Below, one piece after another: positions 13,897-19,141 of a stretch of 64,000 bases of DNA. The DNA comes from an uncultured Acidobacteriota bacterium (GTDB taxonomy: Bacteria > Actinomycetota > Acidimicrobiia > Spongiisociales > ZC4RG35): the NCBI GenBank assembly GCA_963822895.1, contig CAWGJI010000014.1, positions 51,337 to 115,336 on the forward strand. The letters run 5' to 3'. Each line of letters begins with the position of its first letter. The first letter of the stretch is position 1. Position numbers and translations under genes: made by a program. The notes beneath the pieces were generated by a model. It searched no databases, had not been told where the DNA came from, and saw only the letters and a list, made by a program, of their open reading frames with translations.

Positions 13897-14286
13897 CTAC
13901 TGGATGAGTTCGGCGTTGGCTGATGCGGCTGCCAGGCCGGAGTCAGTCGTGATGATGGTTGCGTGGAGCTGATTGGCGAGCTCGATGTACAGGGCGTCGA
14001 CGAGACGGACGTTGTGATGTAGTGCCCAGGCGCCTTCGAGAAGCGGGGCGAGTAGGTGGCGGTGGAATGGTGCCTGTGCAGTGAGGGATACTCGTTCTTG
14101 CACCTGGAGTTGGCTGAGTTCTCCACCACGTTGCAGACGACCCAGGGCTGACAGGACTTCGGCGTCAAAGTGCGCCGGCACGTTGACCTCGCTGTCTTTA
14201 AGGCGCGTGGCGACGAGCTGGCCCAGTGAAGAAGCGACCAGGTGGTCGACCATCGCTGACGCATCGACTACGAGCTTGTCAGCCAC
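13897..14286 (-). CDS. vapC: PIN-domain toxin, VapC-like, copy 1.
   Basis: 'MADKLVVDASAMVDHLV' begins a PIN fold of 129 aa. It overlaps the upstream RHH gene by 8 nt. Confidence 0.75.
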   Translation of the reverse strand: MADKLVVDASAMVDHLVASSLGQLVATRLKDSEVNVPAHFDAEVLSALGRLQRGGELSQLQVQERVSLTAQAPFHRHLLAPLLEGAWALHHNVRLVDALYIELANQLHATIITTDSGLAAASANAELIQ

Positions 14287-14509
14287 CCTCGAGCTCGTCC
14301 TTGGCCGATTTCACCGCCTCGAGCACTTTGTCGTGGCTGATGCCGGGAGAGGCGAGTTCAGCGACGCGTTGTTGCCATCGTGCAAGGTTCTGTGCTGACA
14401 GCGATGACCGGATCGCTTGCTGTGTGAGGCTCGAGATGTTGAGGCCAGCAGCCTTGGCCTCCTCGGCGAGTTCGTCTGGCAGATAGACGTTGACACGTGA
14501 CATGCGCAT
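14279..14509 (-). CDS. vapB: RHH antitoxin, VapB-like, copy 1.
   Basis: The RHH motif 'MRMSRVNVYLPDELAEEAKAAGLNISSL' is present. The start is ATG ~14509 or ~14503. Confidence 0.7.
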   Translation of the reverse strand: MRMSRVNVYLPDELAEEAKAAGLNISSLTQQAIRSSLSAQNLARWQQRVAELASPGISHDKVLEAVKSAKDELEGG

Positions 14510-14639
14510 AATATACACATCAGGAGCGATCGCGAGCAACGAACCACCAGTCTGAGCTCAGCCGGGGCGCAGTTCAGATCTGAGAAGAGTATTCACATCG
14601 GCACGTGTCGCTCGGCTCAGAACCTCCAGTTTCACTGGG

Positions 14640-16290
14640 GACGGCGGATCCCTATTGCTGACCAGGTGGTCACTCTGCAGCAATGGGCATTGGCGGGGGT
14701 GCCACCCTGGTCGCGAGAATGAGACTCGGAGCTCTCGGTCTCTGACCAAGCTGACGGCTCATGCCGATCGAGACGCACATCGAATGCCGGAGGGAAGCCT
14801 GTTGTCACGCATGCAGAGTCACATGTTGATTTCTTTATGAGCCGTTCCGCCAATGCTCTTCCAGTCGGAATCGTCGGCGGGGGCATTCTCGGGCTGGCAG
14901 TCGGCCGCGAGCTCACGAAACGCAATCCGGGCGTCGAGGTCATTGTGTTCGAGAAAGAGGGCCAGCTGGCGGTCCACCAGACCGGGCACAACTCGGGTGT
15001 CGTCCATGCGGGCATCTACTACAAGCCTGGTTCCCTCAAGGCTCAGCTCTGCGCGCGGGGGAGGACCCTGCTGCGCGAGTACTGCGCCGAGCACCAGCTT
15101 CCATACGACCAATGCGGGAAGCTGGTCGTGGCCGTCGACCCATCCGAGATGGGCCGGCTGGAGAACCTGGAGAAGACTGCCTCCGAGAACGGTGTGCCCG
15201 GTCTCAGGCGGGTCGATGGCGGCGAGATCGCCGAGATCGAGCCACACGCTGCAGGGCTGGCCGCGCTTCATTCTCCGACCACGGCCATCACCGACTATGT
15301 CGCAATCGCACGATCGTATGCACGCGACATCGAGGAGGCAGGGGGGCGGATCCTGCTCTCGTCCGAGGTGACAGGCATCGAGCGCCGGGTCGGGTCGATC
15401 GAGGTGCGGACCGAACGAGATGCACGCAAGGTGGGTCGGCTGGTGGTCTGCGCCGGTCTCCAGTCAGACCGGGTCGCCGAGCCGGTGGACGGCGAGAGCG
15501 CCCCACGAATCGTCCCCTTCCGCGGGGAGTACATGAAGGTGGTCGACTCCAAGCGCGACCTGGTGCGAGGGTTGATCTATCCGGTACCCGATCCTCGCTA
15601 CCCGTTCCTGGGTGTTCATTTCACCTCAATGGTTTCCGGCGACCTCGAGGTAGGCCCCAATGCCGTGCTTGCCCTGAAACGGGAGGGCTATCGCAGACGG
15701 GACGTGAATCTCGCCGATGTCGGCAGCATCGTCTCCTGGCCGGGGTTCTGGCGCATGGCCGCATCGAATTGGCGAGCAGGCATCGAAGAAGTCTGGGGCT
15801 CGATCTCCAAACGCGCCTACATGAAGAAGGCCAGCCGGTATGTGCCCGACATCGGCCCAGAAGATGTGGTCAGGGCGAGAGCCGGGGTGCGGGCCCAAGC
15901 GCTCGATCGGGACGGGTCGTTGGTCGACGATTTCAGGATCTTCGAGAGTGACGGGGTGCTCACGGTCCGCAATGCCCCCTCGCCTGGGGCCACGTCGAGT
16001 CTCGCCATCGCCGAGTACATCGTCGATCAGATGAAGACTTCCGGTGAGCGCCATTGATGGCGCCGGAAATGTCACAGCTGGAGCCGGCATACCCTCGATC
16101 GATGGTCTTGACCCGCCAGGTGTTGGCCGATATCGACGACGGATGTTTCGATGTGGACCCGAGTCTCGAGTGGACGCGCCGCGTGCGTCCTGGGCTCCGT
16201 TTGACCCTTGTTTGACGCCGCCAAGCGGACTCAGCGGAATCCACAACCACCACACGCCTCCCCGGCCCAAACACGTCCTGGTCCACTACT
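14640..16290 (+). repeat. lhgO segment, copy 1 of a dispersed ~1.65-kb duplication.
   Basis: It is about 97% identical to 36720..38335 and carries a ~40-bp indel after the stop codon. Confidence 0.8.
14837..16057 (+). CDS. lhgO: L-2-hydroxyglutarate oxidase (FAD-dependent), copy 1.
   Basis: The FAD-binding 'VGIVGGGILGLAVGREL' and the LhgO/YgaF-family length of 406 aa fit this call. Confidence 0.7.
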   Translation: MSRSANALPVGIVGGGILGLAVGRELTKRNPGVEVIVFEKEGQLAVHQTGHNSGVVHAGIYYKPGSLKAQLCARGRTLLREYCAEHQLPYDQCGKLVVAVDPSEMGRLENLEKTASENGVPGLRRVDGGEIAEIEPHAAGLAALHSPTTAITDYVAIARSYARDIEEAGGRILLSSEVTGIERRVGSIEVRTERDARKVGRLVVCAGLQSDRVAEPVDGESAPRIVPFRGEYMKVVDSKRDLVRGLIYPVPDPRYPFLGVHFTSMVSGDLEVGPNAVLALKREGYRRRDVNLADVGSIVSWPGFWRMAASNWRAGIEEVWGSISKRAYMKKASRYVPDIGPEDVVRARAGVRAQALDRDGSLVDDFRIFESDGVLTVRNAPSPGATSSLAIAEYIVDQMKTSGERH

Positions 16291-16675
16291 GGATGAGTTC
16301 GGCGTTGGCTGATGCGGCTGCCAAACCGGAGTCAGTCGTGATGATGGTTGCGTGGAGCTGATTGGCGAGCTCGATGTACAGGGCGTCGACGAGACGGACG
16401 TTGTGATGTAGCGCCCAGGCGCCTTCGAGAAGCGGGGCGAGCAGGTGGCGGTGGAACGGTGCCTGTGCAGTGAGGGATACTCGTTCTTGCACCTCGAGTT
16501 CGCTGAGTCCTCCACCACGTTGCAGACGACCCAGCGCTGACAGGACTTCGGCGTCAAAGTGCGCCGGCACGTTGACCTCGCTGTCTCTGAGGCGTGTGGC
16601 GACGAGCTGACCCAGCGAAGAAGCGACCAGGTAGTCGACCATCGCTGACGCGTCGACTACGAGCTTGTCAGCCAC
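16286..16675 (-). CDS. vapC: PIN-domain toxin, VapC-like, copy 2.
   Basis: It differs from copy 1 at 6 of 129 residues. Confidence 0.75.
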   Translation of the reverse strand: MADKLVVDASAMVDYLVASSLGQLVATRLRDSEVNVPAHFDAEVLSALGRLQRGGGLSELEVQERVSLTAQAPFHRHLLAPLLEGAWALHHNVRLVDALYIELANQLHATIITTDSGLAAASANAELIQ

Positions 16676-16898
16676 CCTCGAGCTCGTCCTTGGCCGATTT
16701 CACCGCCTCGAGGACCTTGTCGTGGCTGATGCCGGGAGAGCTGAGTTCAGCAACGCGTTCTTGCCATCGTGAGAGGTTCTGTGCTGCCAAGGATGATCGA
16801 ATCGCCTGCTGTGTGAGGCTCGAGATGTTGAGGCCAGCCGCCTTGGCCTCCTCGGCGAGTTCGTCTGGCAGATAGATGTTGACACGTGACATGCGCAT
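16668..16898 (-). CDS. vapB: RHH antitoxin, VapB-like, copy 2.
   Basis: The motif 'MRMSRVNIYLPDELAEEAKAAGLNISSL' is present. Confidence 0.7.
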   Translation of the reverse strand: MRMSRVNIYLPDELAEEAKAAGLNISSLTQQAIRSSLAAQNLSRWQERVAELSSPGISHDKVLEAVKSAKDELEGG

Positions 16899-17018
16899 AG
16901 TATACACATAGAGAAAGCGATCACGAGCAACGAACCACGAGTCTGAGCTCAGCCGCAAGCACCTAGTCCGGGTGCACTTCGCTGCCTCAACAGCACCTGG
17001 TTCATTGCCTAGTCGACT

Positions 17019-17618
17019 TCAGGGATCGAGCGATTTGCGCAGCGCACGCACTGCAGCCAGCACCCCCTCGTAGGTTTCCAAGAGTCTTGGCCCCCCGCGC
17101 AACAGAGTTCGCCGATGTATGTCGGCTTCTATCCAATCCCAACTGGCACGGTCGTATGTTGCAAAACACAGTCGCACAGCCTCGACGAACGTGACATCGG
17201 TGCCATCGGTTGCCTGTGTGATCCGATCAACGATCAAAGACTCGAGCGTGATGACTTCGACGGCCTCAGTCTCATTCAGTTTCACGGGAGCCCATTCGCC
17301 ATCGACTACTGATCCTGGAAACTCGACAGGCCAGCGTTCGCCGTCACTGAACGTGTACGCGAAATGGTCGCCCTGGATCTGCTCGAACCCGAGATCCCTC
17401 AGAGCCTGGCGATCCTCCTCATCTAGGTATGCACACATGTCGACGTCGGTCGGTCGATACACGCGGGTGTGCAGGTTGACGGCTGCCCCGCCAACGAGGA
17501 CAGCCGTTCCTTTGAGTGCGTAATCCGCTGCCTTGGCAAGCCAGAGGGATCGGTCGATTTCGTCGCTGTTTCGGTCGGCCTCAGCGAGCGCTCGTCTTGC
17601 TCTCCCTAAGTCTCTCAA
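17019..17618 (-). CDS. Nucleotidyltransferase-fold (Pol-beta-like) protein, a putative toxin or abortive-infection effector.
   Basis: 'GTAVLVGGAAVNLHTRVYRPTDVDMCAY' fits the hG[GS]...DhD nucleotidyltransferase signature. Its start overlaps the upstream HTH gene by 4 nt. Confidence 0.4.
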   Translation of the reverse strand: MRDLGRARRALAEADRNSDEIDRSLWLAKAADYALKGTAVLVGGAAVNLHTRVYRPTDVDMCAYLDEEDRQALRDLGFEQIQGDHFAYTFSDGERWPVEFPGSVVDGEWAPVKLNETEAVEVITLESLIVDRITQATDGTDVTFVEAVRLCFATYDRASWDWIEADIHRRTLLRGGPRLLETYEGVLAAVRALRKSLDP

Positions 17619-17983
17619 CGTCGCGTGGCGAGCGACTCACGCTCAATCTGTGTATCAAGACCGAGCATTTCCTTGCGCTCAAGTCGAGCCACAGGGTCAG
17701 AAGGCCCGATACCCGTACGCGCAAGCATGTCAGCAGAGCGCTGCGCCCACACCTTGATCTCACTCAGTGAGGTCTCATTCCGCCGAGGGGACTCGAGGTC
17801 GCTGAGGCTTCCTCCGTAGCACGACAGAAGCTCGAGGATTGTCGAGATTCGAGGGTCGGCTTTGCCCGTTTCGATATTGCATATCTGAGACCGGCTGATT
17901 CCAGTTGTCTTGAAGACATCAGTGATAGACATGCGATTCAGCTCTCGCATCTGTCGCAACTTGTAGGTGTTGAGAGATGTCAT
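17615..17983 (-). CDS. XRE-family helix-turn-helix regulator, a putative antitoxin/repressor.
   Basis: The HTH_3 motif 'MSITDVFKTTGISRSQICNIETGKADPRISTILEL' is present. Confidence 0.7.
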   Translation of the reverse strand: MTSLNTYKLRQMRELNRMSITDVFKTTGISRSQICNIETGKADPRISTILELLSCYGGSLSDLESPRRNETSLSEIKVWAQRSADMLARTGIGPSDPVARLERKEMLGLDTQIERESLATRR

Positions 17984-17987
17984 GCCT

Positions 17988-18027
17988 GTTAGTTAATACA
18001 CTAACGCTCGTTAGTCAATACACTAAC
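17988..18027. promoter_or_regulatory. Tandem palindromic operator at the 5' end of the XRE gene.
   Basis: 'GTTAGTTAATACACTAAC' and 'GTTAGTCAATACACTAAC' are two 18-bp copies, each with inverted arms GTTAG/CTAAC. They lie in an AT-rich patch directly abutting the ATG at 17983. Confidence 0.6.
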
Positions 18028-18061
18028 AGTCCCGACCCCGATGCATCACCGGCAAGAACTC

Positions 18062-19141
18062 CTAGGCGGGCTGTGCGAACTCGCTCCGGGCGGATTCAGC
18101 AAGCCGCAGGCCGTGCCCGAAGGCCTCCGGTAACAAGGCATGCCCGTCACGGAATTGGATCGGGGTCTCCAGGAGGTCGTTGTATGAGAGGAAGGAATAC
18201 TCCAGCCAGCTGACTTCGGGGAGGGCGGCGGCGATGTGCACTCCGATCTCGAAGTCACTGTTCCCCAACGAAACCGGGATGCCGTGCTCAGCAGCGAGCC
18301 ATCCGATCTTCATGGCGTCGTTGATCGAACCGTGGATATTGAGGACGTCGACGGCCCGGTTTTCGATCAGCTGGCGCTTCCCGGATAGGTCCAAGTACTC
18401 CCCGCTGTTGATGAGAGTGAATGGCACGGCTTTGGAGATGGTCCTGAGCCCGACGAAGTCATCTCGCAGACACGGATCCTCGATCCAATACAGGGGGATG
18501 CCGGACTCGTGATATGCGTGCAGTCTGCGGATCGCCTCTTTGGGTGACCACGCCTCATTGGCGTCGGCCATCAGCTGAGACTCGGGGCCTACGGCCTCCT
18601 GGACCAGTCGGAGTCGCCGGATATCCCAGGCCAGATCCGGGTGCCCGACCTTGACTTTGAAGGCCGAGAAGCCGGCATCACGGGCTTTCGAGTAGAAAGC
18701 CGACACCTCTTCATCCGTCATGTGGTATTCCAGACCGCTTGCATAGGCGGGGACCTTGTCGCGCTTGCCTCCGAGCAGCCGATAGAGGGGTAGTTCGAGG
18801 ATTTGGCCCTGCAGATCCCAGACAGCCTGTTCGACGCTCGGGTAGAAGACCGATTGCTTCACGTTTCCACCGCGTGGACGTTCGAGTCTGTTGGCCCAAG
18901 AGAATGGATCGGAGCCGATCAGCTCCTCGGCGATCTCTCGTTGAAACCGAACTTCGAGCTCCATCAGTGATGGAAGCGGATCGGTGACTGTGTGAAAGAA
19001 GCCCGTTCCGATGCGCCCGGCGTCGTCTTCGAGCTCGAGGACACCCAAGGACAGATGTGTGGCTGAAATCTGCGAATCACCGATTGTTCGGTCGAGTTCC
19101 ACCGCAAACCGGGTCAGCGTGTATTTCTCGATGCGGTGCAA
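18062..19141 (-). CDS. Enolase-superfamily dehydratase (mandelate racemase / muconate lactonising enzyme family).
   Basis: It is 359 aa long and carries the conserved KxK, Mg-ligand Asp/Glu and His-Asp pattern of this family. Confidence 0.7.
   Translation of the reverse strand: MHRIEKYTLTRFAVELDRTIGDSQISATHLSLGVLELEDDAGRIGTGFFHTVTDPLPSLMELEVRFQREIAEELIGSDPFSWANRLERPRGGNVKQSVFYPSVEQAVWDLQGQILELPLYRLLGGKRDKVPAYASGLEYHMTDEEVSAFYSKARDAGFSAFKVKVGHPDLAWDIRRLRLVQEAVGPESQLMADANEAWSPKEAIRRLHAYHESGIPLYWIEDPCLRDDFVGLRTISKAVPFTLINSGEYLDLSGKRQLIENRAVDVLNIHGSINDAMKIGWLAAEHGIPVSLGNSDFEIGVHIAAALPEVSWLEYSFLSYNDLLETPIQFRDGHALLPEAFGHGLRLAESARSEFAQPA

Follow-up and report, generated by a model that had tools for sequence, protein, structure and literature searches.

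A candidate toxin–antitoxin module joining an XRE regulator to a MenT-like nucleotidyltransferase in uncultured Acidimicrobiia

Nucleotidyltransferase toxins of the MenT/AbiEii type have only recently come to be understood as translation inhibitors, and the antitoxins paired with them differ widely. The phospho-acceptor of these toxins is located two residues before the first catalytic aspartate (T39 in MenT1 and S78 in MenT3), and the C-terminal motifs III and IV of MenT1 contribute the catalytic residues K137 and D152. Previous studies showed that MenT1, a protein of 195 amino acids (aa) with a T39-R40-D41-x-D43 motif (PMC10435456), shares with MenT3 and MenT4 the 3' ends of tRNA as target (PMC10435456, PMC7450476), that the partners of MenT toxins are diverse (PMC10435456, PMC11375011), and that MenT1 and MenT3 undergo antitoxin-induced auto-phosphorylation (PMC11375011). 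Here we describe a gene pair in a 64,000-nucleotide (nt) window of an uncultured bacterium of the class Acidimicrobiia (contig CAWGJI010000014.1, positions 51,337 to 115,336), in which a gene for an XRE-family helix-turn-helix (HTH) protein precedes one for a small Pol-beta-like nucleotidyltransferase behind two tandem palindromes. A preliminary description, made from the window alone, had taken the pair for a candidate toxin–antitoxin or abortive-infection system. We consider it probable that the pair is an XRE-antitoxin/MenT-like nucleotidyltransferase-toxin module, that is, an XRE variant of the MenAT/AbiE-type systems; it is most likely a self-contained, horizontally mobile two-gene operon of the toxin–antitoxin type, found mainly in uncultured Acidimicrobiia.

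The gene pair and its operators

The XRE gene (17615-17983, minus strand) starts with ATG and encodes 122 aa, and the nucleotidyltransferase gene (17019-17618, minus strand) starts with TTG and encodes 199 aa. The two genes overlap by 4 nt, since the XRE stop codon TGA shares the sequence TTGA (17615-17618, minus strand) with the start of the second gene, an arrangement that would couple their translation; the equivalent overlap (ATGA, GTGA or TTGA) is present at the junction in about 19 of 22 loci. Residues 1-63 of the XRE protein (17795-17983, minus strand) form an N-terminal HTH_3 DNA-binding domain, with a match to HTH_3 at residues 9-63 (E=1e-9) and a fold resembling those of ImmR, C.AhdI, SinR and HipB. 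The remainder is a C-terminal extension of 59 aa (residues 64-122 with the stop codon; 17615-17794, minus strand), which comprises a linker and three helices (73-90, 97-106 and 112-121) and carries the motif G-[LI]-G-P-S-D-P-x-x-R-L-x-R-K ... E-R-x-A-L-A-T-R. Within this extension, S95, R100, L101 and E114 hardly vary, even in sequences with as little as about 30% identity. We propose that the extension binds and neutralises the nucleotidyltransferase.

The preliminary description had left it to other genomes to decide whether the pair is conserved as a unit, and a scan of one genome per species, which gave 25 homologous loci, answered this clearly: a full-length XRE gene lies directly upstream in all 21 loci with upstream DNA (tblastn matches over residues 1-121, including the extension). 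Two Chloroflexota loci (L025 and L026; 35% identity over about 100 residues) were left out, as they encode a different nucleotidyltransferase of 257 aa without an XRE partner. The nucleotidyltransferase has 246 relatives in a collection of 5.8 billion proteins, nearly all from Acidimicrobiia/Actinomycetota metagenome bins, none with a Pfam domain and all named 'hypothetical', and 259 clusters were recovered when 1.84 billion cluster representatives were searched with a profile; most of the related sequences come from metagenome-assembled genomes (MAGs) or short contigs. The association extends to distant relatives, five of the six checked having an XRE gene directly upstream (P0127, P0133, P0142, P0173 and P0212; 26-38% identity; the XRE gene call next to P0173 is truncated). 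The partner of the sixth, P0184, itself a DUF6036-matching protein, is 151 aa long and matches no Pfam family. In the reverse look-up, XRE homologues of 32-35% identity that keep the C-terminal motif were followed by an open reading frame (ORF) of the nucleotidyltransferase family in two of three cases.

A few of these loci deserve separate mention. At the P0184 locus (L030, 2564-4121 and 4124-5059), P0184 is a protein of 291 aa with the 151-aa partner upstream, and next to it lies a Fic-domain gene preceded by a 66-aa ORF, two genes that may make up another toxin–antitoxin-like pair. In the third case of the reverse look-up, L037 (3001-4205), the motif-bearing XRE homologue overlaps (GTGA) nothing but a 54-aa ORF, past which a response regulator is encoded; this looks like an orphan XRE gene that has lost its nucleotidyltransferase. 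Two loci contain a broken nucleotidyltransferase gene beside an intact XRE gene, one through a single frameshift (L022, 5001-5565) and the other through a partial internal duplication and frameshifts (L023, 5001-5978); since both come from long-read MFD MAGs, these breaks may be assembly errors rather than toxin decay.

Comparison of pairwise identities over 16 loci revealed that the XRE protein and the nucleotidyltransferase co-vary (r=0.80), with similar values for the HTH domain (r=0.70) and the C-terminal part (r=0.71), which lends indirect support to a direct antitoxin–toxin complex. In addition, the HTH and the enzyme occur fused in single chains (P0181, 204 aa; P0246, 151 aa, partial), in which the HTH takes the place of the two N-terminal helices of the enzyme; these fusions confirm a functional link between the two.

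Two 18-bp palindromes of the form GTTAG-N8-CTAAC lie in tandem ahead of the XRE gene, within an AT-rich patch (G+C 0.50-0.51 at 17800-18100 versus about 0.60 around it). The distal one, GTTAGTGTATTGACTAAC (18010-18027, minus strand), and the proximal one, GTTAGTGTATTAACTAAC (17988-18005, minus strand), are identical at 17 of 18 positions with a period of 22 nt from start to start, and the proximal one ends 4 nt before the XRE ATG. With one mismatch allowed, these two are the only occurrences of the pattern in the 64-kb window, against an expectation of 0.25. When the 60-nt segments ahead of the XRE start were aligned for 22 loci, every one of them showed two 18-bp sites, separated by 4-5 nt. 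Both sites have as their inverted repeat the half-sites GTTA (positions 1-4) and TAAC (positions 15-18), which are kept in 17-22 of the 22 loci. The hexamer at positions 10-15 is TTGACT in the distal site (TTG in 20 of 22 loci, TTGAC in 15 of 22) and TAnnnT in the proximal one (21 of 22), and thus each operator encloses one promoter hexamer. In the window, the -35-like TTGACT is at 18013-18018 and the -10 position at 17991-17996.

Across loci, 16-17 nt separate the -35 and -10 hexamers (16 nt in the window), and the XRE start codon is usually 3-4 nt past the proximal site, that is, 6-7 nt past the -10 hexamer (7 nt in the window). Since the -10 hexamer ends only about 7 nt before the ATG, the mRNA would be leaderless or nearly so, and leaderless mRNAs are common in Actinobacteria. 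The centres of the two operators are 22-23 bp, or about two helical turns, apart, so that two bound dimers would share one face of the DNA. Judged from the alignment, this geometry implies an autorepressed promoter with a leaderless mRNA, and the conservation of both sites and their enclosed hexamers in 22 loci bears out the suggestion in the preliminary description that the layout is that of an autorepressed module. A simple promoter and terminator scan of the window gave no site, because the -10 hexamer of the window lacks the required consensus, and the promoter became apparent only through the 22-locus comparison.

Fold and active site of the nucleotidyltransferase

The 199-aa protein carries the signature VGGAAVNLHTRVYRPTDVDM, of the Pol-beta type (hG[GS] ... 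DxD), as V42-G43-G44 ... D58-V59-D60. These six residues and E99 are invariant or nearly so among 35 close and 75 distant relatives, and in the 75 distant relatives G43, G44, D58, D60, E99, P101, D131 and R132 are each at least 90% conserved. The catalytic apparatus, predicted to consist of G43-G44, D58, D60 and E99, looks intact. With this, the sequence features listed in the preliminary description (the 122-aa XRE protein with its extension, the 4-nt overlap, the Pol-beta signature, the paired palindromes by the start codon and the AT-rich patch) have all held up.

The AlphaFold2 model of the nucleotidyltransferase (pLDDT 94, pTM 0.88) shows two N-terminal helices, an alpha/beta nucleotidyltransferase core and a four-helix C-terminal domain, the core elements being strand 40-42, helix 43-51, strand 59-62 with the DxD motif and strand 95-102 with E99. 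Its best structural match is the MenT1 toxin, with 18% identity in the structural alignment, followed by the fungal nucleotidyltransferase-like 5UVD (11.9), TglT/MenT3 (10.3), ANT(2'') (10.1), LnuA (9.3), TM1012 (9.2), JHP933 (9.2) and MenT4 (8.5), and Foldseek concurs with these matches. The protein thus has the bi-lobed fold of MenT, and the structure prediction recommended in the preliminary description yielded a confident model resembling toxins and not a housekeeping fold.

In sequence searches, the nucleotidyltransferase gave nothing above threshold in Pfam, NCBIfam, PADLOC, PHROGs or the sequences of the PDB. The best Pfam match was DUF6036, at 14.9 bits against a gathering cut-off of 23.6 bits (E=0.024), and among the 75 profile-detected distant relatives 31 match DUF6036, 22 DUF2204, 8 NTP_transf_5 and only 2 AbiEii (PF08843; best E 3.5e-5). 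The DUF6036 and DUF2204 matches of the relatives therefore place the family as a divergent branch of that uncharacterised group, and homology of the window protein to DUF6036 is supported indirectly. The preliminary description could not assign the pair to a described family; the protein lies just beyond the limit of DUF6036 and has a place on the margin of DUF6036/DUF2204.

The wider group has the motif Y-x-T-x-D-x-D, in agreement with T39-R40-D41-x-D43 of MenT1 (PMC10435456); in the window subfamily it reads Y-R-P-T-D-V-D. T57 of this motif is at least 90% conserved, and the wider superfamily has a threonine at position -2 in 39 of 75 members. The first helix past the sheet has a conserved E126-x-L-x-x-D131-R132 and no conserved lysine in the alignment.

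Mobility, neighbours and possible function of the module

Flanking DNA is rarely shared between the loci: similarity at E<1e-10 was found in only 11 of 231 locus pairs, and several of the shared pieces are themselves other toxin–antitoxin genes. Two MAGs each contain two copies of the module (L012 and L022; L016 and L024). The pair thus has the features general to type II systems, namely a conserved two-gene operon that begins with a small HTH gene, genes that overlap or adjoin, a genomic context that varies, and palindromic operators (GTTA-N10-TAAC sites in 22 loci) over what appears from the layout to be the operon's own promoter. A distant copy (L035/L036, 1079-4756), consisting of the XRE protein P0294 and a nucleotidyltransferase-family ORF, has a phage-integrase gene on one side and a MazE/PemK pair on the other, which suggests that this copy is carried on an integrative island.

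In the window, the neighbours of the module are an enolase-superfamily gene, two VapBC pairs (ribbon-helix-helix plus PIN), a DAO oxidoreductase gene and a LacI regulator gene. No HEPN gene was found among them or in the related loci, as the preliminary description had remarked for the window, and the Rfam and tRNA scans of the module neighbourhood were empty. The VapBC-type pair, a CcdA-like ribbon-helix-helix antitoxin with a PIN toxin, occurs twice (13897-14564 and 16286-16955), as direct repeats of about 670 bp with 95-97% identity on either side of the gene for the DAO-family FAD oxidoreductase (14837-16057, plus strand); together with the XRE–nucleotidyltransferase module, the two VapBC pairs make up a small toxin–antitoxin cluster. 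A 24-nt inverted repeat, 88% complementary, links 17246-17269 in the nucleotidyltransferase gene with 18444-18467 in the upstream enolase-superfamily gene, and is probably a chance match.

We favour the toxin–antitoxin reading because the HTH gene comes first, is coupled to a toxin-like second gene and has operators on its own promoter, and because the module is mobile as a whole, can be present in more than one copy per genome and has other toxin–antitoxin genes for neighbours (VapBC in the window, MazEF with an integrase at L035). The operon would be transcribed from a housekeeping-type promoter whose -35 hexamer lies in the distal and whose -10 hexamer lies in the proximal GTTA-N10-TAAC palindrome. 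XRE dimers bound to both palindromes on the same DNA face would cover the two hexamers and repress the operon, and the TTGA overlap would couple translation of the second gene to that of the first. If it acts like MenT1, MenT3 and MenT4, the nucleotidyltransferase may arrest growth by adding nucleotides to the 3' ends of tRNAs, the most probable target, or to other RNA, and the three-helix extension of the XRE protein may bind and neutralise the enzyme, either by blocking the active site or by triggering auto-modification as MenA1 does.

Several observations weigh against this reading. The nucleotidyltransferase has no match to the PF08843 (AbiEii/DUF1814) profile even at E<=1. P56 is invariant at the position of the MenT phospho-acceptor, with T57 only one residue before D58, and two residues characteristic of the wider group are replaced in the subfamily, R84 (57 of 75) by D84 and D127 (71 of 75) by S127, so that the chemistry may differ. 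No match to the nucleotidyltransferase was found in plasmids or phages by tblastn or in IMG/VR by scanning, and hence a plasmid or phage origin is unsupported. The fusions P0181 and P0246 lack the XRE C-terminal domain, which is unusual for a toxin and antitoxin and fits simple sequestration less well. Finally, the -10 hexamer of the window reads TTAACT and departs from TAnnnT, possibly through homogenisation of its two sites. The sites of the 21 other loci differ systematically, the distal ones being of the type ..GTATTGACTAAC and the proximal ones of the type ..GAATAnnCTAAC, whereas the proximal site of the window nearly copies the distal one.

The alternative that survives best, although we regard it as unlikely, is a non-toxic enzyme that modifies a small molecule, for example by adenylylation of an antibiotic or metabolite as in ANT(2'') and Lnu, with the XRE protein as a dedicated repressor whose C-terminal domain senses an inducer. 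What speaks for it is that the folds of ANT(2'') and LnuA come almost as near, and Makarova et al. pointed out that such modules are indistinguishable from resistance determinants by genomics alone (PMC2701414). However, the best structural match is a toxin, MenT1, with MenT3 also among the matches, and the 4-nt overlap with the repressor first, the paralogues and the VapBC/MazEF neighbours are typical of toxin–antitoxin loci. The XRE C-terminal domain, moreover, is made of three short helices, shows nothing that can be recognised as a ligand pocket and co-varies with the enzyme (r=0.71), and the plasmid collection, rich as it is in resistance genes, contains no match to the enzyme.

Less likely still is a switch for regulation or defence whose enzyme acts on its own partner, nucleotidylating or phosphorylating the serine of the XRE G-P-S-D-P loop as MntA does HepT, or modifies itself at T57 upon binding of the XRE C-terminal domain, in a type VII-like manner as in MenT1 and MenT3, in response to a signal such as phage infection. 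The near invariance of S95 in that loop down to about 30% identity and the conservation of T57 beside the catalytic D58 suit such a switch, as do the antitoxin-induced auto-phosphorylation of MenT1 and MenT3 (PMC11375011) and the HTH–nucleotidyltransferase fusions, in which both activities would be workable in one chain. Against this, the threonine is off the MenT phospho-acceptor position, no defence-system profile matches the enzyme, no phage or prophage contig is associated with the module, and the case is built on residue conservation only. We think it slightly more doubtful again that the pair is a covalent-control switch and not a sequestration pair, whose XRE helices would induce self-modification of T57 or modification of the partner serine, so that one enzyme would set both its own activity and the grip of the repressor. 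A scarcely credible last alternative, that the genes are unrelated, their adjacency fortuitous and the repeats only a promoter, draws on the hexamers inside the repeats, which explain part of the repeat conservation, and on the blank promoter scan of the window, but is refuted by the occurrence of the pair in 21 of 21 loci with non-syntenic flanks, the conserved NTGA overlap, the GTTA/TAAC half-sites kept beyond the hexamers in both sites (17-22 of 22) and the co-divergence of the two proteins.

If the XRE-antitoxin/MenT-like toxin reading is true, the pair represents a compact branch of about 260 unannotated clusters in which the antitoxin is an XRE repressor equipped with a dedicated C-terminal domain. 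Part of the DUF6036/DUF2204 superfamily would thereby gain a function, and Acidimicrobiia, a lineage with almost no genetics, a testable toxin–antitoxin system. If the covalent-control switch were true instead, the pair would be a new XRE-coupled branch of type VII-like control with an active site (D84, S127) unlike that of MenT. The regulatory layout is very clean, with two operators holding one promoter hexamer each ahead of what would be a leaderless transcript. The result is plausible rather than startling; what gives it value is that a sizeable family without annotation receives a name, and that its promoter–operator design is unusually legible.

Comparison with described systems

The DUF6036 (PF19502) and DUF2204 (PF09970) proteins share with the window nucleotidyltransferase a common core, VGG-A...Y-x-T-x-D-x-D, GF, VEFP and ED-L-x-x-DR, from which the window subfamily differs in the R84-to-D and D127-to-S replacements and in a threonine shifted by one position. 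The library searched for literature contains no mention of DUF6036, and the sole publication in it to mention DUF2204 concerns the unrelated DolP; in the same search, which included NetFlax, no XRE–nucleotidyltransferase toxin–antitoxin pair was described.

The MNT-HEPN (MntA/HepT) systems resemble the module in having a minimal Pol-beta-type nucleotidyltransferase within a small mobile two-gene unit. In those systems, however, the nucleotidyltransferase is the antitoxin and lacks the four-helix C-terminal domain, and there is no HTH repressor; identity with MNT-HEPN was rejected, since no HEPN gene lies nearby. The enzyme did not match the ANT(2'')/Lnu resistance-family profiles. The type II systems with XRE antitoxins (HipB, HigA and Xre-RES) differ in the downstream protein, which here is a nucleotidyltransferase and not a kinase, RNase or RES enzyme, and the XRE motif GPSDP..RL.RK turned up only together with this nucleotidyltransferase family.

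The module is not a member of DUF1814 with respect to sequence profile, phospho-acceptor position or partner type, and the motif IV lysine of DUF1814 (PF08843) was not identified in the window nucleotidyltransferase. As the preliminary description had stated, the regulator is an XRE protein (HTH_3), not the COG5340 winged-helix protein that AbiEi and MenA3 represent. It also differs from MenA1, a 68-aa protein without a DNA-binding domain, in combining HTH_3 with a C-terminal domain of its own. At position -2 of the first aspartate, the enzyme has a proline where MenT toxins have the serine or threonine phospho-acceptor. Its shortness relative to AbiEii, which had been put forward as a distinguishing point, is not one, because MenT1 has 195 aa, and in its 199 aa the enzyme is close to the toxin of MenAT1 (Rv0078B/Rv0078A). 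Beyond length, the module and the MenAT/AbiE systems have in common the motifs hGG and DxD, a third carboxylate carried by the strand that follows, and a two-gene operon in which the small partner gene lies upstream.

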